64,000 nucleotides of DNA from a virus: IMG/VR virus record IMGVR_UViG_3300025818_000017, one strand, 5' to 3'. The position numbers and the translations under genes were made by a program. The number at the start of each line of letters is the position of its first letter. Position 1 is the first letter of the stretch. Below, in pieces: positions 34,105 to 51,852 of this stretch. The notes beneath the pieces are model-generated. The model saw only the letters and a list, made by a program, of their open reading frames with translations. It did not search any database and was not told where the DNA came from.

Positions 34105-34372
34105 TTAGAACGTTGAAGCAAACTCAACGCTATACTGGACGGGGATGCAATTTCCCCCCGGTCCACAAAGCACATTTTGCGGAGTGTTCTTTGTGGGCCG
34201 GATATTTAGGATCGACAGGTAGTTAATAGGTAAGTGGAGTTCTCGGTAGGCGATGACCGTAAATCAAGCAAACACAATAAACGCAGCATCTAACGATAAT
34301 GCTATTGAGGATATCCGCCTAGCGGCATAATCTTCTTGGGTTCGGTGGGTTCCTAGAAACAGAATACCCACC
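34105..34372 (+). ncRNA. ssrA: Two-piece (circularly permuted) tmRNA
   Basis: T-arm GGGGA-TGCAATT-TCCCC (34141-57), acceptor 3' strand CCGGTCC-A (34158-65), self-paired intervening segment, then 5' strand GGGCCGG (34195-201) with G3-U70, AGGATCGAC, tag ORF, terminal hairpin. Confidence 0.9.
34283..34330 (+). other. tmRNA tag reading frame AASNDNAIEDIRLAA*
   Basis: ATAAAC-GCA resume context; SNDN core and LAA-stop degron. Confidence 0.85.
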
Positions 34373-34628
34373 ATTTTATTATTGACAAACTAAAGTAACT
34401 ATAGTATAATGGTCTATGAAATACAGTAAAAACTCAAGTATAAAGGGAGTTGATACTATGTCGTAGATAAATACTTACAAGTCGTAAGACGGAATATATG
34501 ATATATTATGGGGCTGATCCCTACAGTCTATAGTTTAGGCAAAGTGTCCTAATCAAAGAGGTGTTTATTATAGTATATATGAAAGAATACATATACTAAA
34601 AATGTAGAGTTTCTAGTATATTTTAGTC

Positions 34629-34659
34629 AAAAGGGAGACTAAAAATAGTCTCCCTTTTT
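34629..34659 (+). terminator. Terminator, possibly bidirectional
   Basis: AAAAGGGAGACTA-aaaa-TAGTCTCCCTTTT. Confidence 0.85.
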
Positions 34660-34723
34660 ACTTGACTGATACCATATTATATGGTATAATCATCCATCAA
34701 CATTTATTACAGAGGAGTCCAAA

Positions 34724-34945
34724 ATGGCTAAAGGAAAAAAACCATCAGGTAAGACTTACGTATCAAAGGGTGAACGCCGCAATGTAGCAAAGTCAATTAC
34801 GAAGGCGATGAAGCGTGAGCGTACTGGTGGTGAAAAGATGATGTATGCTTTGGAAGCATATAAGAAGGGTTTCAAGGTCAAAAAGTTTGGTTTTGATAGC
34901 CTTCCAGAATATCGTTTCAACCGCTATGGCGGAACAAAAAAGTAA
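34724..34945 (+). CDS. Small basic hypothetical protein
   Basis: TTGACT-N17-TATAAT promoter and GAGGAG SD. Confidence 0.7.
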   Translation: MAKGKKPSGKTYVSKGERRNVAKSITKAMKRERTGGEKMMYALEAYKKGFKVKKFGFDSLPEYRFNRYGGTKK

Positions 34946-34991
34946 AATAATATATTGACATATCACAGGAATGTGGTATAGTAAATATATG

Positions 34992-35696
34992 ATGTACTCA
35001 CCAAAGAAAATAGTCTTGCTTCTTACAGCAAGCTTTGTAGTTGGAGCAGTATCCGCCAAAATGTTTTCGGAAAAGGCTACTGCTTCTATTCCCGATGACG
35101 CTCCTGTTATTGAAGCAGTTCCTATTGAGCGTGTATTGGAAGTAGGACCGTTAAAGGCTACTGCTTCTATTCCAGATAACGCTCCTGTTATTGAAGCAGT
35201 TCCCGTTCAACGTGTGTTTGAAATAGGACCGTTACCAGAACCGTTTCCTTGGGAAGAAACAAAGGGAACAATCCTTGATTGCGAACAGGAACGCCAGAGT
35301 GAGCGTATTGCTTTGGCTTGTAATATCTATCACGAAGCCCGTGGTGAAACTCTTAAAGGTCAAGTTGCCGTTGCTTTGGTGACTCGTAATCGTGTGAAAT
35401 CTGAAAAATACCCCGATAGCTATAGTGAAGTGGTTTGGGAAATCCGCCGTTCAGCCAAAACCAAACGCCGTGTAGCACAGTTCTCTTGGGCGTTGGATGG
35501 TAAGCATGATAGGATTTACGATATTCAATCATGGAGAACTGCTTGGGAAATCGCGGGTGATGTTATTGCTGGTAAGTATAAAGACTTTACCAATGGTTCT
35601 TTATGGTATCACGCCAAGAAGGTGAAACCAGTATGGCGTAAAAAGTTTGAGGTTGCTGCGGTTATTGGAGAACATATCTTTTATCGCAAAAAGTAA
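34992..35696 (+). CDS. Cell wall hydrolase, SleB/Hydrolase_2 family, with N-terminal signal/TM
   Basis: LACNIYHEARGE..GQVAVA.V..NRV, QFSW, IGEHIFY. Confidence 0.9.
   Translation: MYSPKKIVLLLTASFVVGAVSAKMFSEKATASIPDDAPVIEAVPIERVLEVGPLKATASIPDNAPVIEAVPVQRVFEIGPLPEPFPWEETKGTILDCEQERQSERIALACNIYHEARGETLKGQVAVALVTRNRVKSEKYPDSYSEVVWEIRRSAKTKRRVAQFSWALDGKHDRIYDIQSWRTAWEIAGDVIAGKYKDFTNGSLWYHAKKVKPVWRKKFEVAAVIGEHIFYRKK
35073..35234 (+). repeat. Two 81-bp tandem repeats (27 aa) in the hydrolase linker
   Basis: KATASIPDDAPVIEAVPIERVLEVGPL / KATASIPDNAPVIEAVPVQRVFEIGPL. Confidence 0.9.
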
Positions 35697-35707
35697 TAAA
35701 TAACTTT

Positions 35708-36415
35708 ATGTTATTGAATGAACTTTTTAATAAAACGCAGACTTTCGTAGTTGAAGGCGGGAAAGTGTTCAAGGATGCAGATAAAAATCCGCTGACACAA
35801 CGTATTAATCGTGATGACGTAGAACCAACTGTTCGCTGGTTAGAAGATTTAACTGGTCTAAGTTTAGTTGACAATATGCTAGGCACCACTGGCAAAAAAG
35901 ACACAAGTGGCGATTTAGATTTAGCAGTTGATGAAAATGAAATAGATAAAGATACACTAGTAAAAATTCTTTTACAAAAAGGTGTTGATAAAACAGACAT
36001 CAAGAAGAGTGGCGACAATGTGCATTATAAGACGCCAATAAATGGTGAACCAGTCAATGGATATGTACAAACCGATTTTATGTTTGGTAATCCACAGTGG
36101 CAAAAGTTTAGTATGCAAGGCAGTGGTGAAGAAAGTAAGTTCAAAGGTGTTCATAGACACATTCTTCTATCAAGCATTGCGAAAACTATGGGATATAAGT
36201 GGAGTTACAAGAACGGTCTTGTTGACAGAGAAACCAATGCTGTTCTTGATGGCGGCAAAAACCCCGTAATAATTAGCAAGACTTTAGGTATTCCTATTCA
36301 GAATCTAAATGATGTTGATGGTATTATCACGGCTATAAAAGACCGACCAAATTATCAAGAGTTAGTAGCAGACGCCAGAGAAACTTTTGCAAGAGACAAT
36401 CTGGAACTGCCATGA
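35708..36415 (+). CDS. Pol-beta-superfamily nucleotidyltransferase
   Basis: LGTTG..SGDLDLAVD and VQTDFM. Confidence 0.7.
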   Translation: MLLNELFNKTQTFVVEGGKVFKDADKNPLTQRINRDDVEPTVRWLEDLTGLSLVDNMLGTTGKKDTSGDLDLAVDENEIDKDTLVKILLQKGVDKTDIKKSGDNVHYKTPINGEPVNGYVQTDFMFGNPQWQKFSMQGSGEESKFKGVHRHILLSSIAKTMGYKWSYKNGLVDRETNAVLDGGKNPVIISKTLGIPIQNLNDVDGIITAIKDRPNYQELVADARETFARDNLELP

Positions 36416-37557
36416 GATTTTTTGAATTCGCCAATCCACTCGTAGAGGATGAACTACTTATGGAAGCTGCCCGTATCCAACACGCAGAAGATGTTGTTTT
36501 TTGGGAAGGAAGTAAGGGTGCAATAAGAGCATTGCATAGTTTGAGAAATATGGACAAAGGCTCCCATAAAGATACTACTATAAAGTGGGATGGTAGTCCT
36601 GCTGTTATTTTCGGGCGTGATGAAGAAGGTAACTTTATCTTCACTGATAAATCAGGTTTTACCGCAAAAGGTTATGATGGTAAGGCAAAGAGTGCAGAAC
36701 ATCTAGAAAAAATGCTAACGAGCCGCCCCGGTTTCGCCAAAAATCCAAAAGGGTATGGTCCATTTATTGCTGCAATGAAATCTGCCTACAATAGTTTTGA
36801 AAGAGCAGTTCCGTTGGATTACCGTGGATTCTTCAAAGGAGACATGCTTTATTTCACTACACCGAAAGTAAAGAATGGCGAATACGTTTTCACTCCAAAC
36901 ATCGTAACGTATAGCGTTGACGTAGACAGTGAGCTAGGAAACAAAATAGGTAAAAGTGTAGCTGGTGTAGTTATTCATAGACAAGTTGGGCCAGATGGAA
37001 CAGAAAGTCCATTGGATGGATATGACATATTCCAAGGCGAAGAAGTTTTGGTTGTCCCACCGGTTACCGTTGAAAAGGAACCATTTGTTCCACATGATAG
37101 CTTGAATATATTAGAGAAGATTATTAAGAAAGATGCGGCGGCGATTGATACAATGCTTGACACTGATACGTTACGTGCTTTGAAGATAACTGATTTCCCC
37201 CAAGTCTTGTATGCCTATACCAATAGTAAAGTCGATACAGGTCTTACCGAAATGGGCAAGGATTTTGGTGCGTGGCTAAAGAACTCGAAACTAAGTGAAC
37301 GAAAGAAACAAAATATCGCCCAATACATTTCCGAAAATAGTGCTGGATGGAAAGCATTATGGGAAGTTGTCGGTGGCATTATGAAAGCAAAAGACGAAAT
37401 AATCTATGATATCGATTCACAAGGTAGTACTGTCAAACAAAGCATTGCTGGACAAGGCGGCGGCGAAGGTTATGTCTTAGCCCATCCAGAAGGCGATATA
37501 AAACTAGTCCCGCGAGAATACTTCTCAAAAGCAAACCGTGCAGCAAGGATGACATAA
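36412..37557 (+). CDS. Ligase-like nucleotidyltransferase (DUF6267-like)
   Basis: TIKWDGSP (KxDG motif I), FKGDML, GEGYV, IKLV. Confidence 0.6.
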   Translation: MRFFEFANPLVEDELLMEAARIQHAEDVVFWEGSKGAIRALHSLRNMDKGSHKDTTIKWDGSPAVIFGRDEEGNFIFTDKSGFTAKGYDGKAKSAEHLEKMLTSRPGFAKNPKGYGPFIAAMKSAYNSFERAVPLDYRGFFKGDMLYFTTPKVKNGEYVFTPNIVTYSVDVDSELGNKIGKSVAGVVIHRQVGPDGTESPLDGYDIFQGEEVLVVPPVTVEKEPFVPHDSLNILEKIIKKDAAAIDTMLDTDTLRALKITDFPQVLYAYTNSKVDTGLTEMGKDFGAWLKNSKLSERKKQNIAQYISENSAGWKALWEVVGGIMKAKDEIIYDIDSQGSTVKQSIAGQGGGEGYVLAHPEGDIKLVPREYFSKANRAARMT

Positions 37558-37558
37558 A

Positions 37559-38197
37559 ATGAGCGACATTTCATACTTACGCAAACTAATGGATGCGGTT
37601 GAAAACCCGTCAAAGATTATTGCTATCTATCCTGGTCGCTTTCATCCTTTCCACAAGGGACACGCAAGCGTATATGATTTCCTCGTTCAAAACTATGGCG
37701 ATGCTTATATCGCAACATCAGCAAAGGTAGACCCACCAAAATCCCCATTCACATTTGACGAAAAGAAAATGATGATGGAGTTTTCTGGTGTCCCAGCCGA
37801 TAAAATCGTTCAGTGCCGCCAACCATATGTTCCAGTAGAAATCTTACAAAACTTTGATGAAACTGTTGATAAGGTTGTATTTGCTGTATCACAGAAGGAT
37901 ATGGACGAAGACCCACGTTTCCAGTTCAAGCCAAAGCGTGATGGTTCAGCACCATATTTCCAGCCTTGGACTGACGATGAAAGTATGCAACCGTTCAGTA
38001 AGCACGGTTATATTCGTGTAGCACCTACACTGGACTTTGATGTATTGGGTGAGCCAATGCGTTCCGCTACACAGTTGAGGGCACAGTTCGCCCAAGCAGA
38101 TGGCGACACACAAAAAGCAATCATTGAAGACCTTTATGGTTCTTATGACGAAACCATCCATAAGATTATGTATATCAAACTAAAAGGAATGAGATAA
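37559..38197 (+). CDS. Cytidylyltransferase-like (HxGH) nucleotidyltransferase
   Basis: YPGRFHPFHKGH, SPFTFDEK, SATQLR. Confidence 0.8.
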   Translation: MSDISYLRKLMDAVENPSKIIAIYPGRFHPFHKGHASVYDFLVQNYGDAYIATSAKVDPPKSPFTFDEKKMMMEFSGVPADKIVQCRQPYVPVEILQNFDETVDKVVFAVSQKDMDEDPRFQFKPKRDGSAPYFQPWTDDESMQPFSKHGYIRVAPTLDFDVLGEPMRSATQLRAQFAQADGDTQKAIIEDLYGSYDETIHKIMYIKLKGMR

Positions 38198-38892
38198 TGA
38201 GACTTCACGAAATCACCGAAGGCATCCTTGATCCAGATCAAGAGTTTATGCAGCGTTTCACATACGCTGTTGAGGACGCCGCACGTGAATACGCAGAGTT
38301 TCTAAAAGACAATAACGACCAAGACGATCCAGAAGAACTTGCTTCTATCCTTGAAACATTCTTTGAGGAAGAAGACCTACCCATTACCGTTCATGTTGGT
38401 GAGTCTGGACGAAATGCTGTTGATTGGTATATCCAAGCCGCACAAGTCACAGGTAGTGGCGAAATGGACCTGATACTTGACCCTGATAGTATTGATGGGC
38501 ATTGGGGTCCAGAAACATTCATTGATGTGATGACGAAAACATTTGAGCATGAAACAATCCATCTACAACAGCGTGATCGTATGGGTGCAGACAAATATAA
38601 CAAACTACCATCTGGCTATATGAAAGGTCTAAAGAAGGCAGAAAAAACAGGTAAAGAGCGTGACCTTATGAGAACCTATTTCCGTGACCCACAAGAGTTG
38701 ATGGCACACGGACACGACATTTACCGTGAAGTTATCAAACTTTCTGATCCAGAAGCGGTATTACGAAACCCCGAAAAACACCGTGAAGACCTACCAACAT
38801 ACGACAAACACCGCCAAATCTTCCCACCAAACGCCAAACCTTTACAGCGTATGATGAAATACGCCTATCAATATTTCCAAAAAAACGCTTGA
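38197..38892 (+). CDS. HExxH zincin-like protein
   Basis: EHETIHLQQ and downstream YF.DPQE.MAH. Confidence 0.55.
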   Translation: MRLHEITEGILDPDQEFMQRFTYAVEDAAREYAEFLKDNNDQDDPEELASILETFFEEEDLPITVHVGESGRNAVDWYIQAAQVTGSGEMDLILDPDSIDGHWGPETFIDVMTKTFEHETIHLQQRDRMGADKYNKLPSGYMKGLKKAEKTGKERDLMRTYFRDPQELMAHGHDIYREVIKLSDPEAVLRNPEKHREDLPTYDKHRQIFPPNAKPLQRMMKYAYQYFQKNA

Positions 38893-38916
38893 CATAATCA
38901 TAATCTGTGCTATACT
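38889..38916 (+). promoter_or_regulatory. sigma70-like early promoter
   Basis: TTGACA-N16-TATACT. Confidence 0.8.
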
Positions 38917-38940
38917 GTATACAGATTGATGGAGATATCT

Positions 38941-39225
38941 ATGTGGAATGAACCCCCCAACAGCTTTACTTTCTGTGACGAGAATGCTTCCCCCGAAGAT
39001 GTGGAACTGTTTCTTGGTCCTGATCCCGAAGAAAAAACCACCTTCATTCGTTTTGGTGAAGACTTCACGATGGCTGATGTAGCCGTCGCCACGGGCAAGT
39101 TCCCGTCCAAATCACAGGCTCGTAAGAATGGTTGGGATGGTGATATCCCCACTGGTTTCACTGAAAAAACTCTTGGTAAGAACGCCAAGAAGGTTCACAT
39201 CTGGATTTTCAAGAAGTTCGACTAA
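38941..39225 (+). CDS. S4-like RNA-binding domain protein
   Basis: MADVAVATGKFPSKSQARK resembles the S4/TyrRS C-terminal helix pair. Confidence 0.45.
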   Translation: MWNEPPNSFTFCDENASPEDVELFLGPDPEEKTTFIRFGEDFTMADVAVATGKFPSKSQARKNGWDGDIPTGFTEKTLGKNAKKVHIWIFKKFD

Positions 39226-39464
39226 TGCCACTTGACCTTCACGGATATCACACCCACGATGGCTGGAAACGCTTTATGGATGAAGTGGATGATGCCTATG
39301 ATCGTGGTGTAAAATCATTCAAAGTGATCACTGGCAAAGGTCAGATGCGTGTAGAGTTTCGCATTTGGGCAGAGAACCATTCTAAAGTGCGTAAAGTTGA
39401 ACTGAACAAAGATGGCGGAAGTTTCAAAGTAACATTACGCAAAAAACCACTTGACAAATCCTAA
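39225..39464 (+). CDS. Stand-alone Smr domain protein
   Basis: LDLHG and VITGKG motifs, 79 aa. Confidence 0.85.
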   Translation: MPLDLHGYHTHDGWKRFMDEVDDAYDRGVKSFKVITGKGQMRVEFRIWAENHSKVRKVELNKDGGSFKVTLRKKPLDKS

Positions 39465-39478
39465 ATCTGTGCTATGAT
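39451..39478 (+). promoter_or_regulatory. sigma70-like promoter overlapping a late TAAATA
   Basis: TTGACA-N16-TATGAT followed by ATAAATA. Confidence 0.7.
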
Positions 39479-39501: not shown

Positions 39502-39702
39502 ATGATTGAAGTCAAAGTAAAGAATGTTGTCAACGAAGCCACTGGTGAAGTGGAAGAAGTTATCGTCAATGAAGAAGAAGTTGCCGCTTACCTTGCTGAA
39601 TCCGAAAAGGGCATTGAGGAAGCGGAAGTTATTGCTCCTGAGAACTTCTTAGAACATACCCGTAGCCGCATCGCAGAGCGCCGTAAGCAACTTGGAAAAT
39701 AA
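39502..39702 (+). CDS. Small acidic protein
   Basis: AGGAG SD; E-rich. Confidence 0.7.
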   Translation: MIEVKVKNVVNEATGEVEEVIVNEEEVAAYLAESEKGIEEAEVIAPENFLEHTRSRIAERRKQLGK

Positions 39703-40239
39703 ATGCGTTTATGGGAGTTCATAACAGAAACGAGCAGAGGCATTACTGGCATCAAAGAGACTGATGGTTACATCGATTCTTTGATTGATATCATAGACAA
39801 ACATCCCGCCGCTGAAAAAATCATTGAAGATGCAATGAAGAAGTTCATTGCGGTAAAGACTCGTGATTCACAGGAACCTTACAACAATAAGGATTACGGT
39901 CACCAAGGCGTACTGAAAGGTTATAAACACGTTCATCTTCTAAAAAGTAATAAAATAAGCAATGGTACGAACCCTGTGGTTTTGTATTATCGCATTGAGG
40001 CTGGTATTCTTATTTTGGTTCATATACAGTTTCATATCAACGCCGCCAATAGAAGTAGTGAAGATAAGCGTTTAGTCAAAAAACTACGCAGAGCAGAACA
40101 GAACGATACATCTATGGTAATGCCAGTAGATGACCCAACTGAAAAGAAGAAAACACAAGGCGACTATAATCAACAAAAGAAAGACGATTATAAAGACCAG
40201 CAATGGTACAAAGATCAACAAGAGTTCTATAACCACTAA
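39703..40239 (+). CDS. RelE/YafQ-like protein with CTS-like N-terminus
   Basis: KDYGHQGVLKGYKHVHL..VLYYRIEAGILILVHIQFH parallels YafQ motifs; MRLWEFITE. Confidence 0.5.
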   Translation: MRLWEFITETSRGITGIKETDGYIDSLIDIIDKHPAAEKIIEDAMKKFIAVKTRDSQEPYNNKDYGHQGVLKGYKHVHLLKSNKISNGTNPVVLYYRIEAGILILVHIQFHINAANRSSEDKRLVKKLRRAEQNDTSMVMPVDDPTEKKKTQGDYNQQKKDDYKDQQWYKDQQEFYNH

Positions 40240-40253
40240 CAAAAGAGGGGCAT

Positions 40254-40535
40254 ATGCCCGATCAACTTACTAAAGAACAGTTCTGGCATATCCTGTCTTC
40301 GCCGATTATTGCTCGTCAATGCGGCACTTGCAAATACGAAGATAGAGAAGGGGATGAATGTTTTCATCCTACTGCTGCACGGAAGCCATTTGAGTTTATA
40401 TCGGGGCAGATGGTTGACGATATCAAATGCTCTGGTTATTACCATGATGGACTCAGTTTTGACCGTGAAGTGTACGAAGCGGATTGGGGTAACCATATCG
40501 TAGACCTTTGGGAGTGGAACGGTGAAACTTACTAA
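40254..40535 (+). CDS. Hypothetical Cys-containing protein
   Basis: CGTC..C..C; SD upstream. Confidence 0.6.
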   Translation: MPDQLTKEQFWHILSSPIIARQCGTCKYEDREGDECFHPTAARKPFEFISGQMVDDIKCSGYYHDGLSFDREVYEADWGNHIVDLWEWNGETY

Positions 40536-40941
40536 TAAAGAGAAGCGTTTATTTGACTTTCTCAAACGACAGGCTATTGATGTTGAGCCTGTGAGGTCTT
40601 CCCGTATCGTTGCTGCTGTTGTACTCAATGGGCAGATTATTAGCGTTGGGAATAACTCAATGAAGTCCCATCCGTTTGCCGCCAAGTATGGTAAGAATGA
40701 ACACGCCGTGTTTCTTCATGCTGAAACGGACGCTATCAAAAAAGCGTTGAACCATCTTGGTCCCAAAGATTTTAGTAAAGCAACGCTATATGTCCAGCGA
40801 GTAAAGCGACCAGACCCATCTAGGAAGAGAGGTTGGGTGAATGGTTTGTCCAAGCCGTGCCGTGGATGTATGAAAGCGGTTGTTGAGTTTGATTTTAAAA
40901 AGGTTGTTTATTCAACCGACGAAGGATATGAAGTCTTATAG
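40522..40941 (+). CDS. Zn-dependent cytidine/dCMP-type deaminase
   Basis: HAE and PCRGC motifs. Confidence 0.85.
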   Translation: MKLTNKEKRLFDFLKRQAIDVEPVRSSRIVAAVVLNGQIISVGNNSMKSHPFAAKYGKNEHAVFLHAETDAIKKALNHLGPKDFSKATLYVQRVKRPDPSRKRGWVNGLSKPCRGCMKAVVEFDFKKVVYSTDEGYEVL

Positions 40942-42192: not shown

Positions 42193-43827
42193 ATGAAAAG
42201 TACTGCTGTAATGGGCTGGCTTGCCCTCTTTATGTCTTTAGCTATCGCCGCTTGTGCGGCGTATTTTAGTATTGCTGGTTTGGCGGTATTGTTTGCCGCC
42301 GCTCTCATTCCTGTTATCATTATGGCTACCACGCTGGAGATTGGGAAGCTCGTAGCAACTTTCTTCCTGCATAGATTTTGGGAAGAATTGCCGGGGCAAA
42401 TAAAATATCCAATGACAATGATGGTCGTTATTCTTATGCTTATTACGAGTATGGGTATCTTTGGTTTCTTATCTAAGGGACACATTGAACAAGAAGCACC
42501 AGAAATCTCAATGCAAACTGAGATAGATAACGTTGATAATCAGATCGGTTTCCACAAGGGTGCTATCAAGGACATTGAGAAAGACCTTGCACAAATTCGT
42601 GAAAGTCTAGACAGATACACTGAATTAGGTGCTGTTACAAAAGGTCTAGCAGCACGAGAAAAACTACAAAAAGATATTGACGGTCTACGAGAAAAGATTG
42701 CTAAAGAGCGTAAAGAAATCCGTACCCTTGAAGAAGAGAAGTTAAATATTAGACAACGAATAAATGAGATTGAAGCCAAGCTTGGTCCTGTAAAGTACGT
42801 TGCAGAATTATTTGGCTTTGACCTCAAGGAAGACCCGCAAGGTAAGGGTAAAGCAGTCCGTATTGTTATTGTGCTATTCATGCTTGCTTTTGACCCGTTG
42901 GCTATTTGGCTGGTCATGGCTAGTGATTGGGCTTTCCTAAAGTATCGCAGAGAAAGAGAAGAACTAGGCTTAGACGAAAAAGAGGAAGAAGAGCGTCAGC
43001 GTAAACTAGAAGAAGAAGAGCAAAGAAGACTACAAAAGATAGCTGAAAAAGAAAAAGAACTAGAAGAAAAACTATCTAAAAAAAACCTGACCAAAGAGGA
43101 AGAAATGACCGAGCTTGAGGAAGCATTGGTCCAAGTGTATCATCAACTAGAGGAAAAAGAAATGGAACTAAAAGAGTATACCGCAATCCTAGAAGAGCTA
43201 GGTCGCACGTTGGATGAAAAGCCAACGGAAATTGAGAAAATCGTTGAGATTGAGAATACTGAAAAACTAGAAGAAATGGTTGCCGAAATTAACCAACTTG
43301 AAAGTCAGAAGATAAACCTAGAGCAAGAAATGGAAAGTATTCGTGCTAGTTTGATGACAAAGGAACAAGTTGCAGACGAGCTAAAACAAGCTTTGGTAGA
43401 AGTTAGAAACGAACTAGAAAGTATTCGCCAAGAGAATAACGCTCTCAGAAGTGACATTGAAGCACGTGATAATGCAGTTGCTTCGTTGAATAAGAAATAT
43501 AATCTTGTTGAGAAAATCCCAGGTATGGTTCTTCGTCCCGACACAGGTACGCCAAAAGACGCTACCTTTGGTACAGATTTCCCATCTAACCCAGTAAACG
43601 GTCAGCAGTTTCTTCGTGTTGATGAACTACCAAGTAAACTATACAAGTACGATGGTTCCCGTTGGGTAGAAGTTGTAAAAGACGTTGATGTTGAGTACGA
43701 TGAACAATATCTACAGCATCTTATTAACGAGTTGGGAGAAGGCAACGTTGAACTTGACGACTTGAGCCAAAAAGAACAAGAGGAAATCCAAGCCTTATTA
43801 AGCAAAGACGATGTACTCGGACAATAA
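42193..43827 (+). CDS. Inner-membrane protein with long coiled coil
   Basis: Several N-terminal TM helices, LEIGKLV, E/K-rich coiled coil. Confidence 0.75.
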   Translation: MKSTAVMGWLALFMSLAIAACAAYFSIAGLAVLFAAALIPVIIMATTLEIGKLVATFFLHRFWEELPGQIKYPMTMMVVILMLITSMGIFGFLSKGHIEQEAPEISMQTEIDNVDNQIGFHKGAIKDIEKDLAQIRESLDRYTELGAVTKGLAAREKLQKDIDGLREKIAKERKEIRTLEEEKLNIRQRINEIEAKLGPVKYVAELFGFDLKEDPQGKGKAVRIVIVLFMLAFDPLAIWLVMASDWAFLKYRREREELGLDEKEEEERQRKLEEEEQRRLQKIAEKEKELEEKLSKKNLTKEEEMTELEEALVQVYHQLEEKEMELKEYTAILEELGRTLDEKPTEIEKIVEIENTEKLEEMVAEINQLESQKINLEQEMESIRASLMTKEQVADELKQALVEVRNELESIRQENNALRSDIEARDNAVASLNKKYNLVEKIPGMVLRPDTGTPKDATFGTDFPSNPVNGQQFLRVDELPSKLYKYDGSRWVEVVKDVDVEYDEQYLQHLINELGEGNVELDDLSQKEQEEIQALLSKDDVLGQ

Positions 43828-44191
43828 ACTTATCATAGTTTCTTCTCCTACGTACTATCACGGCAATGTACCAAGTCTTATGCTTTATGATATAGAACCC
43901 GATGATATGAAGATCATTATGGAGATTCTACTTGATTCGGATATCGTTATGAGTGTTCATTTGGGGTATTCCGATAAATCAGAGCGCGAATGGTTGTTAA
44001 ATACTAGTAGACAGGTTGACAGAACGATTGTTAATCTTCAAAAACATGATTTGATTAAAGGATTTATATTGAATTACCCCACTGTTTCGTATTATAATAA
44101 TACACACGATATAGAGTCGTTGAATATGAACCAACTAACTGATCCCATCGATTACATACTGAGGTTTGTGCATGAGCAAAGAGACGAATGA
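43811..44191 (+). CDS. Hypothetical protein
   Basis: Coupled ORF. Confidence 0.65.
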   Translation: MYSDNKLIIVSSPTYYHGNVPSLMLYDIEPDDMKIIMEILLDSDIVMSVHLGYSDKSEREWLLNTSRQVDRTIVNLQKHDLIKGFILNYPTVSYYNNTHDIESLNMNQLTDPIDYILRFVHEQRDE

Positions 44192-45431
44192 AAAGAACTT
44201 AAACTGCGACTTTTGTGGAAAGAACCGCAACGAGGTCGATAAGCTTATTGTGGGCAACGATACAAGCATTTGTAATGAGTGTGTTGATCTATGTCATGAC
44301 ATTCTTGAGAACGATAGGTTTACCAAACTAAAGAAAAACCTAATCAACAAAGACTATCTAAATCCCATCAAAATCAAAGAACACCTAGACAAATATGTTA
44401 TTTCACAAGATAAAGCAAAGATTGCTTTATCCGTTGCCGTAGCAAATCATTTCAAGCGTATTAATCATCCCCCCAAAGACCTAAAGATTGAGAAGTCAAA
44501 TATCATGATTGCTGGTCCTACTGGTAACGGTAAGACTATGCTTGCCCGTGCAATCGCGGAATATCTAGAGGTTCCATTTGTTATCGCTGACGCCACTACT
44601 CTTACAGAGGCTGGTTATGTAGGCGATGATGTAGAAAGCATTATTTCCCGTTTGCTACACGTTGCTGATTACGATGTGGAGAAAGCACAGAACGGTATTA
44701 TCTTCATTGACGAGATTGATAAGATTGCCCGTAAAAGTGAGAATGTATCTATTACCCGTGATGTATCTGGTGAAGGCGTACAGCAAGCCCTATTAAAACT
44801 AGTAGAAGGCACGGATTGTCGTGTAGCACCACAAGGTGGGCGTAAGCACCCATCACAAGAGTTGATCAATGTCAACACAGAAAACATCCTATTCATTGCG
44901 TCTGGCGCATTCGTGGGACTTGATAAGATTATTGAGAAACGCAAAACACCAGGTAGTATCGGCTTCGGTGCAACTATTTCTGAAAAAGAAAAAGACACAC
45001 TAGAAATGTTGAATGATATTGAACCTCACGATTTCGTGAGTTTCGGTCTTATCCCTGAGTTCACTGGTCGTTTCCCTGTATTCACTCATGTTGAGAAACT
45101 TGATGCGGCTGATTTGGTTCATATTATGACTGATACTAAGAACTGTATTATTGACCAGTATAAGTATTATTTCACCTTACAGGACATTGAGTTGGAGTTC
45201 AGCAAGGAAGCGTTAGTGGCTATTGCTGATAAAGCGGTTACATTAGAAACTGGTGCCCGTGGTCTAAAGAGCATCATTGAGGATGTATTATTGCCACATC
45301 AGTTTCATATGTATGATTACGCCAAGGATGGTGTAAAAAAACTTATTGTAGATGAGGCTACAATCGAGTATAATGATAAGATAAAGTTTGTTTATGAAGA
45401 GGTATCAAATGGCAAAACAGAAAGAGTTTAA
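44172..45431 (+). CDS. clpX: ATP-dependent Clp protease ATPase subunit ClpX
   Basis: C4 Zn finger, [12 protein letters not shown] pore loop, [22 protein letters not shown] loop, IGF loop. Confidence 0.95.
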
Positions 45432-45675
45432 CGGCTCAACTATTACAATCAAGTATCCCCCGAATCCTACTGACGAACAGAAGGCAAGGGCGTTCAACAA
45501 CGGTTTGCGTAAGTTCAAGAAGATGGTTCAGACTGAGGGTATCATCCAGGAATATCGTGAACGTGAGTTTTATGAGAAACCAACTACTCGTCGCCGAAGA
45601 GAAAAGTCGATGGCTCGTAAGCGTTGGCTAAAGCGCCAGCGTGAACTAGAGAACGAGCGTTGGGGTAATACTTGA
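45409..45675 (+). CDS. rpsU: Ribosomal protein bS21
   Basis: LRKFKK..GII.EYREREFYEKPT.RRRRE..ARKR. Confidence 0.85.
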   Translation: MAKQKEFNGSTITIKYPPNPTDEQKARAFNNGLRKFKKMVQTEGIIQEYREREFYEKPTTRRRREKSMARKRWLKRQRELENERWGNT

Positions 45676-45786
45676 CAAATCCCATTATATTGTGATATAA
45701 TGATAAATAAGAGTGAGGATATGCCATAAGGGTGTCCTCACCTTACTACCCGCAGATGCCGAATGGTTCGGGTCTGCATTACATAA

Positions 45787-45815
45787 CTTGCTTAGATATA
45801 AGGAGTAAAGCAATG
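45787..45815 (+). promoter_or_regulatory. ROSE-like hairpin sequestering the hsp20 SD
   Basis: CUUGCUUA-gaua-UAAGGAG pairs with a single bulged G opposite the SD. Confidence 0.5.
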
Positions 45816-46241
45816 AAAACATTAACACATCGTGATTTTCCACAACTCGTCGGCTTTGACCGTCTATTCAATGAACTAGATCGTTTGACTACAGCATCTT
45901 CTGGTTCATCCGCAGGGTATCCCCCATACAACGTAATCAGTGAGAGTGACAACGATTATATCGTAGAGATTGCTGTTGCTGGTTTCAGCGAGGATGCTTT
46001 GAGCATTGAAGAGCATGACGGAACATTGACTATTCGTGGTATTCCAGCAGAAGGTGAAGAAGATCGTAAGTACGTTCATAAAGGTATTTCTAACCGTAAG
46101 TTTGAGCGTTCATTTACATTGGCTGACCACGTTCATGTCGAAGGTGCATCTGTTGAGAACGGACTTCTGACCATTAAGTTGATTCGTGAAGTCCCAGAGG
46201 AACTACAACCTCGTAAGATTGCTATTGAATATAAGAAGTAA
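45813..46241 (+). CDS. Small heat-shock protein Hsp20 (IbpA-like)
   Basis: GFDRLF, YPPYNV, EIAVAGF, HKGISNRKFERSF, NGLLTI. Confidence 0.95.
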   Translation: MKTLTHRDFPQLVGFDRLFNELDRLTTASSGSSAGYPPYNVISESDNDYIVEIAVAGFSEDALSIEEHDGTLTIRGIPAEGEEDRKYVHKGISNRKFERSFTLADHVHVEGASVENGLLTIKLIREVPEELQPRKIAIEYKK

Positions 46242-46263
46242 TCTTCAAAAAGAGTTCCCTTAC

Positions 46264-46298: not shown

Positions 46299-46340
46299 GT
46301 ATAAATAACTTAGTATATTATTCAAAGAAGGGTGCTATCA

Positions 46341-46823
46341 ATGAAACAGAATCCGATACTATTCAAATGGTGGATACAAACAGTTGTTATTATATTTGCG
46401 TCTGTTATCGCTGGTCATCTTGGTTGGTGGGAAGCACTATGGGATGCTGACCAAACAAAGATTTCTATTCTTATTCTATTTCTATTCGTTCTTTCAACTT
46501 TGGGCGCTGGATATATCAGTAAGGAAAATACCCAAGAAGTTTTAGAAAAATATCAGAACTATGTTTGGTTCGCCAGTGAAGCAATGATTACCCTTGGGAT
46601 GATTGGAACGGTTGCCGGCTTCCTTATTCTTCTTGGAAATGGGTTTGAAAGTATTGATGTTACCGATACAAAAAGTCTGCAAAATATTATTGCTGGCATG
46701 GCGGTTGGTATGAGTACAGCCCTTACAACTACTTTGGTTGGTCTGATTGGTTCAGTATTGACTAAACTGCAAATGGTTATTATTGAGAACAGTTGGGAAG
46801 ACGATGAGGAAGTACAGAAGTAA
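46341..46823 (+). CDS. MotA/TolQ/ExbB-like proton-channel protein
   Basis: LGMIGTVAG and GMSTALTTTLVGL. Confidence 0.8.
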   Translation: MKQNPILFKWWIQTVVIIFASVIAGHLGWWEALWDADQTKISILILFLFVLSTLGAGYISKENTQEVLEKYQNYVWFASEAMITLGMIGTVAGFLILLGNGFESIDVTDTKSLQNIIAGMAVGMSTALTTTLVGLIGSVLTKLQMVIIENSWEDDEEVQK

Positions 46824-47472
46824 TCAGCGTTTTAAAGCAAGTTTTGGAATGATTGACTTATTATTCAATCTATTGATTGGATTCGTCTTTCTTTTCATTA
46901 TTGCTTTCATTATGATTAGACCTATTACCAAGACAAAAACCATTGATCCAAAAGCGGAATACTTGATTATTATGAGTTGGCCGGAGGGTGATGAAAACGA
47001 CATTGATTTATGGGTAAAAGCAGAGAAATCAAAGATTGTAAGTTTTCGTTCCAAGGATAGTGGATTGATGCACCTTGACCGCGACGATCTTGGTGGAACA
47101 AACGATACTATCATTGTTGATGGAAAACCTACTAAAAGCAAAATCAACCGTGAAGTTGTTTCCATCCGTCAAAAAATACAAGACAAATATTATGTAAATG
47201 TTCATTGGTATTCACAAAAGGGTGAGAATAGTGCGATTGCTGATATCAAAGTAGAAGTAATATTGCTTCGTGTGAATCCTTATAAAGAAGTTGCTAAATC
47301 AACAGTTGTTCTTCCTACGAAGGGAGCAGAGGGCGCAGCATTTCAGTTCTACATTGGGGAAGATGGTGATATTGAGCAAGTTACAAAAGATGAAGAACGA
47401 TGGGTAATGGGTGAAGTACAAGCATATATTGATAATGCCGGTGGCGCTATGGATAGAGTGAACGGACCATAA
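46804..47472 (+). CDS. MotB/ExbD-like partner: one TM helix plus soluble domain
   Basis: MIDLLFNLLIGF TM with Asp; DIDLWV..LDRDD. Confidence 0.6.
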   Translation: MRKYRSNQRFKASFGMIDLLFNLLIGFVFLFIIAFIMIRPITKTKTIDPKAEYLIIMSWPEGDENDIDLWVKAEKSKIVSFRSKDSGLMHLDRDDLGGTNDTIIVDGKPTKSKINREVVSIRQKIQDKYYVNVHWYSQKGENSAIADIKVEVILLRVNPYKEVAKSTVVLPTKGAEGAAFQFYIGEDGDIEQVTKDEERWVMGEVQAYIDNAGGAMDRVNGP

Positions 47473-47975
47473 TGGAACTATTTTTTACAACAACCGAACT
47501 TCTAGTAGTCTTTTGGGTAGGGTTTTCTATTGTCGCACTTGGTCTTGTATTTCGTTCATCATTATCTTTTTCACGAAAAATGTTGATTGTTCCCTTGACT
47601 TTCCTTGCACTATATGTTACAATAACACAATCAATAGAACTATTAGGAAAACCATACGAAGGGGTGCCATCAGACGAGTTTGTTTTTGTTTCATATAGAA
47701 TATCCGTTGACCCTACTACCAAGAAAAAGTCTATCTTGCTTTGGACTAATAACAAGGAAGAGGGTGATAGACTGTATATTCTTCCATATAATGAACAGGC
47801 AAAGAATAAACTACAGCAAGCCGCCCAGCGTCAGAAGCAAGGTGTTATGCAGATGGGTAAGTTTAAGAAAACAAAACAAACAGGCAAGCGACTAGAAAGC
47901 ACACTATGGGCAGATATACAACTTTATGATTTTCCTATGCAGACATTGATACCGAAAGACAACCCTAACAAATAG
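47472..47975 (+). CDS. Membrane protein (2 TM plus soluble domain)
   Basis: Coupled third gene of the module. Confidence 0.6.
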   Translation: MELFFTTTELLVVFWVGFSIVALGLVFRSSLSFSRKMLIVPLTFLALYVTITQSIELLGKPYEGVPSDEFVFVSYRISVDPTTKKKSILLWTNNKEEGDRLYILPYNEQAKNKLQQAAQRQKQGVMQMGKFKKTKQTGKRLESTLWADIQLYDFPMQTLIPKDNPNK

Positions 47976-47983
47976 AGGACCGT

Positions 47984-48286
47984 ATGACTGATACTGATAT
48001 TGCTGAAAAAGTAAAGACTAATACCCGACTAAAAGAACCATCAATGTTCAATGTTATCTATCTAAACGACGAACAGACAACGATGCAGTTTGTCGTTGAT
48101 ACACTTATTCGTCATTTTGATTATGATGATTCAAGTGCTATGGAAAAGATGGCTGAAATCCATGATGAAGGTGCTGGTGTTGTTGCTACACTACCATATG
48201 AAATGGCTGAACAGAAAGGTGTAGAAGTAACGATTGAAGCACGAAATCTTGGTTTCCCGTTACAGGTAAAGGTGGAACCAGCGTAA
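47984..48286 (+). CDS. clpS: Clp protease adaptor ClpS
   Basis: PSMFNVIYLNDEQTTMQFVV..L, IHDEG, AEQK, FPLQ. Confidence 0.92.
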   Translation: MTDTDIAEKVKTNTRLKEPSMFNVIYLNDEQTTMQFVVDTLIRHFDYDDSSAMEKMAEIHDEGAGVVATLPYEMAEQKGVEVTIEARNLGFPLQVKVEPA

Positions 48287-48810
48287 TGCGTGTGGTGAAT
48301 CTATTTTCGGGTCCAGGTGCTGGTAAATCAACTACCGCATCTGGACTTTTTTTTGAAATGAAAACCCGTGATATGGAAGTAGAACTGGTTACAGAATATG
48401 CTAAAAAGTTGGTATGGCAGAAACGTCATAACACTTTACAGGACCAGTTATATGTAACGGCAAAACAGAACCATCGCATGCAAATCCTACGGGAACAAGT
48501 GAACTGGTGTATCACAGATAGTCCTATTCTACTTGGTCTACATTATTCACCGCACTTTTACCCACGGACATATCCATCCTTTATTCTGGATGTTTTCAAC
48601 TCATACGACAATATGAACTTTTGGATTGAGAGAACAAAGAAATATAATCCAAATGGAAGGAATCAGACAGAAGACGAAGCAAGAGAAGCAGACGCAAATA
48701 TTCGTGCTATCCTTGATGATAACAAGATTGACTATACAGTTATTAAAGGAAATCCAGATGCCCCGAAGCGTATTATGGAAACTATTTTGGCAACAGGAGA
48801 TTACGTGTGA
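48286..48810 (+). CDS. NadR/Ttd14-like P-loop kinase (AAA_28)
   Basis: GPGAGKST, EYAK, ITDSP, YNPNGRNQT. Confidence 0.7.
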   Translation: MRVVNLFSGPGAGKSTTASGLFFEMKTRDMEVELVTEYAKKLVWQKRHNTLQDQLYVTAKQNHRMQILREQVNWCITDSPILLGLHYSPHFYPRTYPSFILDVFNSYDNMNFWIERTKKYNPNGRNQTEDEAREADANIRAILDDNKIDYTVIKGNPDAPKRIMETILATGDYV

Positions 48811-49303: not shown

Positions 49304-49656
49304 AAATTATTTTTGGAAGAGAAAACGCAGAAAAGTTCAAAGACAACTATATCGTTCTTGAACTGGACACATTCAATGTGACCAATGTTGGTGAGGTAGT
49401 AACCTTTTGTGTATTATCCGCAGAAGAAATCCCGCTTGGTATGTTACCAGAACTACCACACTGGACAGAGTTTCATAATAAACTATTGAATGGTTATAGA
49501 ACCAAGCAATGGAACTTTTGCCTTGACTGTATCTCAAACCTAAAGGGAAAACTTGGTGGCGAGATTGATACATTCTATGATAATCTAAAACAGCGTATTG
49601 AAGTATATAGGGACACTGGCGTTCCCGACGATTGGACACATATACTCCAACGATAA
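49300..49656 (+). CDS. Protein resembling the helical C-terminal extension of adenylate cyclases
   Basis: GY..KQW..C.....FY..L..RI..Y....PDDW pattern. Confidence 0.4.
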   Translation: MKIIFGRENAEKFKDNYIVLELDTFNVTNVGEVVTFCVLSAEEIPLGMLPELPHWTEFHNKLLNGYRTKQWNFCLDCISNLKGKLGGEIDTFYDNLKQRIEVYRDTGVPDDWTHILQR

Positions 49657-49663
49657 ATATTGT

Positions 49664-49885
49664 ATGAAGTTATTCATAGTAGCCTTTATCTATATATGTA
49701 CAAATGGTGGGTTCGTATGTAATGAAGAACCTATCACTAAAACGTGGCGATACGAAGATGGGAAAGACCCATCCATCATTAAAGAAAAGTGTGAGAAATG
49801 GATTCATGAAAAGATATGGGAAATGCCTTTGAAGCCTGGTGAAATAGCACAAGCAAGATGCCAGTTACAGCTAATAAAAGAATAA
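49664..49885 (+). CDS. Hypothetical protein
   Basis: TAAATA-N4-ATG. Confidence 0.55.
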   Translation: MKLFIVAFIYICTNGGFVCNEEPITKTWRYEDGKDPSIIKEKCEKWIHEKIWEMPLKPGEIAQARCQLQLIKE

Positions 49886-49941
49886 AAAATATGCTGAAAA
49901 AATAGTGGAGAAAAAAGTAGACGATATTATCTAAATACTGT

Positions 49942-50505
49942 ATGTATGAACAGTTATTTATATGGACCGTCCTAACTTTAGTTCCTCTTATTCCAACTTA
50001 TGTAACACATAGGTTTTTAGAGAGTTCTGCTACATATAAAGCCGCACACCAGGGTATCAAACTTGGTGGTGCTATTGCTGCTTATTTCATTCTATTGGGC
50101 ACAGCGTTTTACACATATAATAATATGTTCAATGACCCGCTTTCAGATATTCGCCAAGCATTATCTGGTGAATGGTCTTGTACGGGTTCCATCACTGAAT
50201 CTGATAAAGAGTTTGACCCAACAAAGTCTATTTCATCGTCAATGAATATTCATGTAAATGGCGGTAATCGTATTTCACTAACTGGTCATATTCCTTCTAT
50301 TTTTCTACACTGGCAAGCAGAAGAAGTTATCGTGACTGAAAAAGAGTTGATTTACATCTTCAATATTCCAATCAAAAACTCAACAGGCATTACTTGGTTA
50401 TCGTTCAACCGCACAGATGGTGAGATTCTTGGTCTTTTCGGTCATTGGGTTATCTCAGGCGAAAAAGGCAAAGGTTCGCTAACCTGTTTCAGAAATAATC
50501 AATAA
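49942..50505 (+). CDS. 2-TM plus beta-rich domain membrane protein
   Basis: Two TM helices, then LSGEW and alternating beta strands. Confidence 0.6.
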   Translation: MYEQLFIWTVLTLVPLIPTYVTHRFLESSATYKAAHQGIKLGGAIAAYFILLGTAFYTYNNMFNDPLSDIRQALSGEWSCTGSITESDKEFDPTKSISSSMNIHVNGGNRISLTGHIPSIFLHWQAEEVIVTEKELIYIFNIPIKNSTGITWLSFNRTDGEILGLFGHWVISGEKGKGSLTCFRNNQ

Positions 50506-50511
50506 AAACAC

Positions 50512-50539
50512 TTGACAATATCATAATTTATGCTATACT
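50512..50539 (+). promoter_or_regulatory. sigma70-like early promoter
   Basis: TTGACA-N16-TATACT. Confidence 0.8.
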
Positions 50540-50570
50540 GTATATAGAAATTGAGATTGGAGAGATACAA

Positions 50571-50822
50571 ATGATCAACTATATTTCTGCTAACGACGGT
50601 GGTCTTGAGTTTCACACTGGGAATGGTGGGGCTTTCTTGGTTTCACGCGACATCAATGAGTTGGTTGGTTTTGCGCTGGATCATGGTTTCGCTGAAACTG
50701 TGATGGGTTCGTCCACGATGGACTTTGCCAGTGAGTATGGCTTTGAGACTAACGAAGGTGCCGATGAACTCTTGGAGAAAGTGTTTCGGCGGGTTGCTTT
50801 TGTAACGGAAGGTGTTGTCTAA
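50571..50822 (+). CDS. Hypothetical early protein
   Basis: GGAG SD after promoter. Confidence 0.7.
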   Translation: MINYISANDGGLEFHTGNGGAFLVSRDINELVGFALDHGFAETVMGSSTMDFASEYGFETNEGADELLEKVFRRVAFVTEGVV

Positions 50823-50995
50823 TGGATCAATATACCGCAGTTGGCCTTGCTGAAGGTTTCATTGAAGCTGAAAGCGAAGAACAAGTGATTGAAGCGTGGC
50901 AGTATCTGATCGATACAGGGCTGGCCTATCGTCTACAAGGATGGTTTGGCCGCACCGCAACCGACCTGATTGAACAGGGGATTTGTGATGGATAA
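50822..50995 (+). CDS. 57-aa early protein missed by the ORF track
   Basis: MDQYTAVGLAEG..AWQYLIDTGLAYRLQGWFGRTATDLIEQGICDG; coupled on both sides. Confidence 0.75.
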   Translation: MDQYTAVGLAEGFIEAESEEQVIEAWQYLIDTGLAYRLQGWFGRTATDLIEQGICDG

Positions 50996-51161
50996 AGTGT
51001 TTATTGTTGAAGTAATGCGTGATGGTGTCGTTTCACGCGAAGGTGTGTATGCTTCGGTTGAAAAAGCCAACGCGGTACAGAAACGGCTTGAAGAATGCCG
51101 TGATGCATCTGGCGAACCGTTTTACGATTTCGTCTTCAACCAAGAGGCGATTGTAAACTGA
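50988..51161 (+). CDS. Hypothetical early protein
   Basis: Coupled ORF. Confidence 0.6.
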   Translation: MDKVFIVEVMRDGVVSREGVYASVEKANAVQKRLEECRDASGEPFYDFVFNQEAIVN

Positions 51162-51361
51162 TGACTGATAAGCCAGAAATCTACCCGTATATTACGATTG
51201 AGCGGTCTTCTGTTGATCCCGAAGGATGGGGTGGCGATGTTCGTTATTACAAAACGATTGGCCACGCTCGTTCTGTAAAGGAAACGATTGAAGAAGCTTA
51301 CCGTGATTCGGATGGCGAAACCGTGGATATTCGTATCTACAAACTTGAAGAAATCACTTGA
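51161..51361 (+). CDS. Hypothetical early protein
   Basis: Coupled ORF (TGATG). Confidence 0.6.
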   Translation: MTDKPEIYPYITIERSSVDPEGWGGDVRYYKTIGHARSVKETIEEAYRDSDGETVDIRIYKLEEIT

Positions 51362-51385
51362 CAATCCACCAAAATATGTTATACT
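51358..51385 (+). promoter_or_regulatory. sigma70-like early promoter
   Basis: TTGACA-N16-TATACT. Confidence 0.8.
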
Positions 51386-51408
51386 GTATATAACAGTTGG
51401 AGAGATTT

Positions 51409-51852
51409 ATGACCGATACATTCCCCGTTCTTTACATCCTGATGCGTAATGACCTTGCCAGCATGAACGCTGGTAAGGCGATGGCACAGGCTTCCCACGC
51501 TTCTAACGCTTTTGTTGATCAAATGTCACAAGAAGAAGATAAGTTTGAAGGATATTCTACCAACCCTGACGACGATGCCGACTTGAAGCTGTTTTGGAAA
51601 TGGCGTACAGAGACTGAACAGGGTTTCGGCACTGTTTTGGTTCTGGCTGTGAACGAAGCACAGATGCGTACCGCAGTTGAAGTTGCTGGTGCGATGGGGT
51701 TTGTTTCTGGCGTTGTTCACGATCCAACCTACCCGTTGCGTGATGGCGACACGACACACTTCTTGCCGGTTGACACCTGTTCGTTCATCTTTGGCGACAA
51801 AAACGATCCAATGCTTGGCGCTGTTGTTGGCAACTTCCCACTGCATCCATAA
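51409..51852 (+). CDS. Peptidyl-tRNA hydrolase, Pth2 family
   Basis: YILMRNDL.SM.AGKAMAQASHA, W..G..TVLVL, VHDP, DTC..FG. Confidence 0.75.
   Translation: MTDTFPVLYILMRNDLASMNAGKAMAQASHASNAFVDQMSQEEDKFEGYSTNPDDDADLKLFWKWRTETEQGFGTVLVLAVNEAQMRTAVEVAGAMGFVSGVVHDPTYPLRDGDTTHFLPVDTCSFIFGDKNDPMLGAVVGNFPLHP

Follow-up and report, generated by a model that had tools for sequence, protein, structure and literature searches.

The 64,000-nucleotide stretch of DNA from the IMG/VR virus record IMGVR_UViG_3300025818_000017, analyzed here at its full length and referred to as the window, carries between positions 34105 and 51852 a group of genes for translation and protein quality control, which the original prediction had described as one integrated toolkit for ribosome rescue. 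The reading that we regard as probable is a different one: a modular, early-expressed set of translation and proteostasis helpers typical of jumbo phages, in which separate helpers are gathered and not one wired pathway. The set can be divided into three layers. The first is an old, co-inherited cassette, clpX-rpsU(bS21)-hsp20-clpS, preceded by orf544 and kept in an order common to dozens of uncultured phages. The second is a permuted two-piece transfer-messenger RNA (tmRNA) of betaproteobacterial type, common in the lineage. The third consists of sporadic add-ons, namely a Pth2 gene found only in the nearest relatives and a variable island in which an S4-like gene is paired with Smr, and orf66 with a RelE-YafQ-like gene. 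Seven of the nine parts originally named (tmRNA, Smr, ClpX, bS21, Hsp20, ClpS, and Pth2) were confirmed by curated models; the S4-like and YafQ-like proteins were not matched by any profile.

The window is phage DNA, with genes for UvsW-like and DnaB-like helicases, a primase, a ribonucleotide reductase, a radical-SAM enzyme and many proteins without assigned function. Its source is an uncultured T4-related jumbo phage, of whose genome it is a part. The nearest relatives are contigs of 100–230 kb with a CheckV completeness of 34–65%, which implies a full length near 350 kb. Searching IMG/VR with ClpX yielded 80 loci (62 ClpX clusters at 95% nucleotide identity), which were split into four with 77% ClpX identity to the window and 76 distant ones with 50–56%. 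The counts given below for distant loci take only those with adequate flanking DNA for the gene concerned; profiles of gene presence and absence were counted over 14 larger related contigs, and the tmRNA over 19 partial contigs. One relative, L169, has about 78% nucleotide identity to the window and is closer than the contigs with 77% ClpX identity. A megablast search of 12.3 kb against cultured phages gave no match. Two leads were discarded in this survey: DUF6267 was uninformative as a marker of relatives (51 loci, belonging to other phage groups and with zero toolkit genes), and the best ClpX match, “Acinetobacter phage MD-2021a,” proved to be bacterial DNA (tig-clpP-clpX).

The first gene of the cassette encodes a ClpX unfoldase (44166–45431, + strand), identified by the equivalog model NF003745 (550.6 bits against a cut-off of 359), zf-C4_ClpX (55 bits) and AAA_2. 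Its translation contains the zinc finger, the Walker A and B motifs (GPTGNGKT and IFIDEIDK) and, intact as originally described, the GYVG loop of pore 1 (AGYVGDD), the RKH loop (GGRKHP) and the ClpP-docking IGF loop (GSIGFG). The end of clpX is overlapped by a bS21 homologue (45388–45675, +; likely start ATG at 45394), which scores 53.8 bits on TIGR00030 (cut-off 28.95) and 51.1 bits on PF01165, and in which the REFYEKP core appears as REREFYEKPTTRRR. An Hsp20/IbpA-like small heat-shock protein follows (45732–46241, +; PF00011, 69.7 bits against 20.8), with its own consensus promoter at 45672–45701; its score on the IbpA model (132.6, cut-off 212) indicates that it is not an IbpA equivalog. 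The ClpS adaptor (47984–48286, +) reaches 78.4 bits on PF02617 against 23 and is under the NCBIfam equivalog cut-offs (67 against 149). Its LNDEQTTM and EIHDEG motifs presumably resemble the N-degron pocket of the Escherichia coli protein. ClpS serves ClpA, not ClpX. Upstream of clpX lies orf544 (42193–43827, +), which by alignment and its hydrophobic N-terminal segments looks like a membrane and coiled-coil protein; its C-terminal domain is conserved, and its middle part is of variable length (490–900 aa).

The linkage of these genes extends far beyond the window. Among the distant loci, orf544 was found in 61 of 63, Hsp20 and ClpS each in 47 of 48, and bS21 in 38 of 72, in all 38 at 11–135 nt past clpX. 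The order clpX, hsp20, clpS was observed in 66 of the 66 distant loci having all three, with a median gap of 77 nt between hsp20 and clpS. Other genes of the window are mostly not shared by the 76 distant loci, the exceptions being the lysin (9 loci) and orf118 (12 loci). Closer to the window, the four contigs with 77% ClpX identity are collinear with it from the CTP-transferase-like gene to Pth2, and the relatives G001 and G002 keep the order CTP-transferase, orf231, orf544, orf126, ClpX, bS21, Hsp20, MotA-like, orf229, orf167, ClpS, AAA_28, orf118, orf187, Pth2. A MotA/ExbB-like gene and two further genes are inserted between hsp20 and clpS in the window (46300–47975, +), an insertion confined to this phage and the relatives closest to it. 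A role of orf544 as a chaperone partner of ClpX was considered and is unsupported, since the protein looks like a membrane and coiled-coil protein and its homologues in the phages Mosig and XacN1 do not adjoin clpX. Homologues of its N-terminal part also occur in SCTP-2, RsoM2USA and marine megaphages.

As originally stated, no ClpP is present in the window (tblastn). The gene was found in 11 of the 14 larger related contigs, ClpA in five, and in many distant relatives a canonical ClpP lies 4–7 kb downstream of clpX. In G001, ClpA (775 bits) and a divergent ClpP-like gene (118 bits) are located some 65–68 kb downstream of clpX, and an enzyme of the CCA-adding family some 35 kb downstream. In L143 (G003, 126299–127889), a canonical ClpP gene (237 bits) lies beside a divergent one (87 bits), an arrangement reminiscent of ClpP1/ClpP2 pairs; such a pair is seen in some relatives, and G001, among the closest, has the divergent type only, adjoining ClpA.

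The second layer is the permuted two-piece tmRNA gene (34107–34378, +). It matches the Rfam family RF04321 over 34107–34330 (+) with 93.4 bits (gathering score 47) and covers model positions 1–213 of 213; the beta_tmRNA family RF01850 gives 86.5 bits, against a threshold of 84, over 34054–34378. The permutation can be read directly, with the 3′ strand of the acceptor, CCGGTCC (34158–34164), lying ahead of the 5′ strand, GGGCCGG (34195–34201). A G3:U70 pair is present, the T arm is GGGGA-TGCAATT-TCCCC, and the tag frame (34283–34330) translates as AASNDNAIEDIRLAA followed by a stop, so that the tag ends in DIRLAA. The gene is preceded by a sigma70-type promoter, TTGACA-18-TATAAT (34068–34097, +; 12 of 12 consensus matches), which also aligns to the promoter part of RF01850, and is followed at about 34344–34372 by a terminator hairpin with a T run. 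An exact 19-mer is common to this tmRNA and to permuted tmRNA genes of Alcaligenaceae, which would fit a betaproteobacterial origin of the tmRNA and does not fix the host. Among cultured phages, blastn with the tmRNA as query found nothing similar.

Within the lineage, a permuted tmRNA scored above threshold in 7 of the 19 partial related contigs. In six of the eight genomes carrying one, the window included, it lies 10–22 kb upstream of clpX, and G002 retains the order orf598-orf85-tmRNA, with the same upstream neighbors. All of the phage tags that can be read to a stop codon (those of the window and of four relatives) end in LAA or VAA. The tagging and degradation proposed in the original prediction is the part of it that fares best: an LAA-ended tag forms a coherent pair with a ClpX whose pore and ClpP-docking loops are intact, and tag plus ClpX is the best-supported functional connection of the set, one that would need SmpB and alanyl-tRNA synthetase (AlaRS) from the host, completion of the CCA end, and a ClpP from outside the window. 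SmpB was not found among the scanned open reading frames (ORFs) of the window, in agreement with the original statement, nor in any of 18 phage records (the 14 related contigs and four complete phage genomes), and must come from the host. Beside the tmRNA, a candidate small RNA was observed (34382–34662, +), about 245 nt without an ORF, with a perfect sigma70 promoter (34382–34410), an intrinsic-terminator hairpin at about 34631–34660, a fold z of −3.8 and a 64-nt core that is 84% conserved in G002; it matches no Rfam family.

The distribution of promoters, called as consensus matches, bears on the time of expression. Nine of the 14 near-consensus plus-strand sigma70 promoters of the window fall in the 34–52 kb region, directly before the tmRNA, the unannotated RNA, orf73, the lysin, orf99-Smr, orf66-orf178, Hsp20, orf83 and Pth2. 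T4-type TATAAATA late motifs were found only before the MotA-like and LamG genes. The sigma70 promoters before the units, together with the restriction of late motifs to two genes, therefore point to early expression driven by the host polymerase, as far as can be judged from consensus sequences.

The third layer differs from the cassette in its distribution. Pth2 (51397–51852, +; promoter 51358–51385) belongs to the Pth2 family of peptidyl-tRNA hydrolases by PF01981 (35.2 bits against 23), in a match that covers only profile positions 3–81 of 115; on the NCBIfam equivalog it scores 23.1 against 126. The motifs GKAMAQASHA and VVHDPT are present, and the protein shares 39–48% identity with products of genes annotated as Pth in alphaproteobacterial phages. 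A homologue with 66% identity occupies the same position in G001 and G002, and among the 14 larger related contigs the gene was found in two, both nearest relatives.

The island includes orf99, Smr, orf66 and orf178, and its first two genes form a unit with orf99 in front and a promoter at 38889–38916. The gene called S4-like in the original prediction is most likely orf99 (38926–39225, +; phrog_11006). No match was obtained for it in Pfam (E up to 5), NCBIfam or PADLOC. An AlphaFold2 model built from nine homologues reached a predicted local distance difference test (pLDDT) value of 79; Foldseek with this model gave no match at E ≤ 0.001, and VIA-align gave a list (Z 2.1–3.4) enriched for S4/alpha-L proteins, with the C-terminal domain of tyrosyl-tRNA synthetase (TyrRS; 6hb5_A) at 3.4, YbcJ at 3.0, YlmH at 2.3, Hsp15 at 2.2 and RqcP at 2.1, all under a safe Z. 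Moreover, S4/SYY_C-terminal domains (PF01479/PF22421, 0.90) were assigned to 7 of 30 language-model neighbors. An S4-like fold is thus plausible but unproven from these models, and it would be nearer to TyrRS, as a possible S4/alpha-L protein resembling the TyrRS C-terminal domain, than to the rescue factors of the 50S subunit, Hsp15 and RqcP, with which the protein had been compared. The idea of orf99 and Smr as a conserved pair was rejected, since four other contexts of orf99 homologues have no adjoining Smr.

The Smr gene (39225–39464, +), whose start overlaps the stop of orf99, encodes a stand-alone domain of 79 aa (PF01713, 36.9 bits against 25.7) with the motifs LDLHG (DxH) and TGKG (GxG). 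By sequence, it has in common with E. coli SmrB this catalytic domain and its DLH and GxG motifs. Unlike SmrB it is a bare domain: the Pfam match begins at residue 3, leaving no place for an N-terminal extension. In E. coli SmrB that extension anchors the protein to collided ribosomes. This architecture limits the analogy, originally drawn, with SmrB-type cutting of mRNA at collided ribosomes. Its phage relatives are only those of Phosso, Atu_ph07 and L169 (87%). A phmmer search against PDB sequences gave nothing useful for Smr, Pth2 or orf544.

The second pair of the island starts with orf66 (39502–39702, +; promoter 39451–39478), a 66-aa acidic protein. In L169 its first 35 residues are conserved at 71%, and the remainder has diverged. 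It adjoins orf178 (39703–40239, +), the YafQ-like protein of the original prediction, in which a possible RelE/YafQ/ParE-like fold over about residues 12–120 is followed by a charged tail. The resemblance stems from an ESM Atlas model (pLDDT 0.64), which gives template-modeling (TM) scores of 0.54–0.77 to YafQ, RelE, ParE and YoeB clusters. No profile match was found for orf178 in Pfam (PF15738 and PF05016 included), NCBIfam or PADLOC, a search of 5.8 billion proteins returned the protein itself as sole match, and a single-sequence AlphaFold2 model was unusable (pLDDT 45). The arrangement, a small acidic ORF that precedes and abuts a possibly toxin-like protein, resembles E. coli DinJ-YafQ and other type II toxin-antitoxin pairs of the RelE/ParE superfamily, and orf66 is by position a possible antitoxin-like partner of orf178. 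Unlike those toxins, orf178 lacks a profile match, carries an additional charged tail some 60 aa long and is found only in the phage of the window and in one close relative. Its counterpart in L169 is 31% identical, against 65–93% for most other shared genes, and several histidines are conserved between these two known alleles.

A phage-run scheme of cutting and recycling may be built on these genes, in which the fast-evolving RelE/YafQ-like nuclease, restrained by orf66, would cleave host mRNAs on ribosomes together with the bare Smr domain, possibly guided by the S4-like protein encoded on its transcript. The tmRNA, Pth2 and ClpX would then clear stalled ribosomes, peptidyl-tRNAs and tagged fragments. 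We hold this distinctly unlikely; if true, it would couple host shut-off with the recycling of ribosomes and amino acids.

The island is kept in L169. At the syntenic site of G001 and G002, unrelated small ORFs replace orf99, Smr, orf66, orf178, orf93, the deaminase gene and the LamG gene. Even between the window and L169, the segment made up of the C-terminus of orf66, orf178 and orf93 (39502–40508 in the window, 4722–5790 in L169) shows no nucleotide alignment, and would be a replaced or fast-diverging segment, a pattern typical of conflict genes. The island also encodes a cytidine/dCMP deaminase-like protein (40522–40941, +) that matches the MafB19-like deaminase family as well. At another site of L169 (447–2460), a GIY-YIG (SegE-like) homing endonuclease adjoins a divergent DUF6267 allele (25% identical), where the window has orf235 and DUF6267, which suggests allele replacement driven by the homing endonuclease at the DUF6267 site of L169.

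The interpretation from which this study started holds that the nine parts form one co-adapted pathway that senses, cuts, tags, recycles and degrades, and that is directed against translation-stalling defenses of the host, anticodon nucleases and toxins among them. Every activity needed for it is represented in the window, several units have the early promoter type in common, the LAA-ended tag and the intact ClpX suit each other, and the Sinorhizobium phage Phosso also combines tmRNA, Smr, Pth2, ClpX, ClpS and bS21. The co-occurrence of the parts in relatives speaks against it, since the check fails for half of them: clpX, rpsU, hsp20 and clpS are co-inherited and the tmRNA is often nearby, but Smr was found in none of the 14 larger related contigs, Pth2 is as rare as described above and the island is missing at the G001/G002 site. 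In the same direction point the S4-like homologues without an Smr neighbor, the weak S4 assignment itself, the bare Smr domain, the absence of SmpB from the 18 records, and the cultured phages PA5oct and Mosig, which carry the Clp block only and the tmRNA only, respectively. PADLOC, run on ten proteins of the island and the block, gave no matches, and no other defense-related signal was seen; for the countering of defenses as such, neither support nor contrary evidence was obtained here. Overall, a single pathway appears unlikely.

The cultured phages provide a second line of comparison. In Pseudomonas phage PA5oct (vB_PaeM_PA5oct, MK797984.1), the genes EST35_0255–0260 encode ClpX, 30S S21, two hypothetical proteins, a heat-shock protein and ClpS in the gene order and strand of the window, with rpsU directly behind clpX and, as in the window, no SmpB. 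PA5oct differs in having its own ClpP about 7.5 kb past the block, where the window has none nearby, and in lacking a tmRNA above threshold, Smr, Pth2, and orf544 upstream of clpX; in the window, in turn, hsp20 and clpS are separated by three additional genes. The overall parts list of the window is met in Phosso (PV764938.1), one of the Atu_ph07-like jumbo rhizobiophages that were compared, together with AP-J-162 (PMC11242549) and Agrobacterium phage Atu_ph07. Phosso encodes a permuted tmRNA (113 bits), an Smr that is the nearest cultured-phage relative of that of the window (38% identity), three Pth2-family genes, ClpX, initiation factor 3 (IF3), bS21, ClpS, two ClpP and an enzyme of the CCA-adding family, and no SmpB. 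Its genes for these parts are spread across more than 350 kb of a 469-kb genome, against 18 kb in the window, its host is an alphaproteobacterium, and its ClpX, 52% identical to that of the window, is followed by IF3 and not by bS21. AP-J-162 carries tmRNA, ClpX, S21, Hsp20 and Pth (PMC11242549).

Other phages have smaller selections. XacN1 has tmRNA and Pth2, and neither ClpX nor SmpB; Mosig has the tmRNA (RF04321, 93.6 bits) as the only member of the set, and no SmpB. Two-piece tmRNAs have been counted in isolate phage genomes, 53 in total (Buchholz et al., 2022, PMC9004378). As in the window, the ssrA gene of the marine myophages Melnitz (Methylophilales phage) and Mosig (Pelagibacter phage) is circularly permuted and follows an early promoter (PMC9004378). 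Their tmRNAs are of the alphaproteobacterial type and are accompanied by a glutamine riboswitch, without ClpX, whereas that of the window passes the threshold of the betaproteobacterial RF01850 and has no encoded CCA.

The presence of the Clp block without a tmRNA in PA5oct may also be taken to mean that development of the phage and takeover of the host are what the Clp/Hsp20/bS21 cassette is for, through remodeling or destruction of chosen host or phage proteins, support of virion assembly or a bias of initiation toward phage mRNAs, with the tmRNA as a separately acquired and unrelated helper. That most relatives encode their own ClpP, and some ClpA, would be in keeping with this. ClpX, ClpS, ClpP and Hsp20 have been recorded in jumbo phages, and translocase or assembly roles have been proposed there for ClpX/ClpA and the targeting of host proteins for ClpS (Iyer et al., PMC7824862); the study of AP-J-162 ties ClpX to replication control (PMC11242549). 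Both proposals lend this alternative some weight. It is countered by the tags, all of which end in a ClpX degron (LAA or VAA) where they are readable to the stop, and by the recurrence of the tmRNA in the genome region of clpX within the lineage. This alternative is possible yet doubtful, and it does not exclude the favored reading.

Several points weigh against the modular helper set as we have described it. The kept gene order may in part reflect the shared ancestry of a syntenic region and not selection on the block. Most of the related contigs are 17–74% complete, so the absences of tmRNA and Pth2 are soft. The ClpA, ClpP-like and CCA-adding enzymes of the window phage are predicted through synteny with G001 only; a scan of metagenomes with the ClpA of the relative did not bring up the contig of the window. 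Finally, after A73 the tmRNA of the window reads CAA (TCCACAA), where seven relatives have CCA (TCCACCA); a CCA-less tmRNA may be defective, or the deviating base may stem from faulty assembly. ARAGORN called no tmRNA, whether given the whole window or the tmRNA region, probably because the CCA end is missing, and the identity is decided by Rfam.

Taken further, this last point would mean that the tmRNA is decaying or inactive for want of an encoded CCA and that the rescue arm does not work in this phage. The difference from seven relatives speaks for it, as does the failure of ARAGORN, which is able to find bacterial permuted tmRNAs. Against this stand the otherwise intact gene, with its 93-bit match to the full model, G3:U70 pair, T arm, uninterrupted tag frame closed by a stop, perfect promoter and terminator, and the CCA-adding-family enzyme encoded by the closest relatives, which could complete the …AC end. 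We consider a decayed tmRNA very unlikely.

For the favored modular set, a course of events can be proposed from the gene identities, synteny, promoters and tag sequences observed, all of its biochemical steps being ones that we infer. Most units would be read early by the host sigma70 RNA polymerase. The tmRNA precursor would be cut into two pieces, its 3′ end completed by a CCA-adding enzyme, and the product charged by the host AlaRS, which would recognize G3:U70. Host SmpB would then deliver it to ribosomes stalled on broken mRNA, where the nascent chain would gain the …DIRLAA tag. Phage ClpX may bind the LAA end and feed the chain to ClpP, either that of the host or a phage ClpP-like protein expected outside the window. 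Next to this, ClpS would direct ClpA-ClpP to N-degron substrates, Hsp20 would hold unfolded proteins, bS21 would enter host 30S subunits, and Pth2 would release tRNA from dropped-off peptidyl-tRNA. The joint effect would be to sustain the translation capacity of the host and the amino-acid supply through a long infection.

Additionally, some genes outside these three layers were recorded. The block is flanked on one side by a cytidylyltransferase/NMNAT-like gene (37559–38197, +), a weak match of 20 bits, and on the other by a gene for a NadR-like AAA_28 kinase (48286–48810, +); both may be NAD salvage genes. Far upstream, at 11546–12133 (+), the window encodes a protein with an ART-PolyVal ADP-ribosyltransferase domain (34 bits).

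The window alone reveals no new mechanism. Since the cassette is already annotated in cultured jumbo phages, and since only ClpX, bS21, Hsp20 and ClpS travel together, the region is a familiar gene set and not a new integrated rescue pathway. Its significance lies in the lineage: clpX-rpsU-hsp20-clpS is among the most stably linked auxiliary cassettes of a large, mostly uncultured group of jumbo phages, often with a phage tmRNA and ClpP alongside. To this the window adds a variant with Pth2 and an Smr/RelE-like island, which separates the core from the optional parts, and cultured phages are at hand for the study of both, PA5oct for the core cassette and Phosso for the full parts list.

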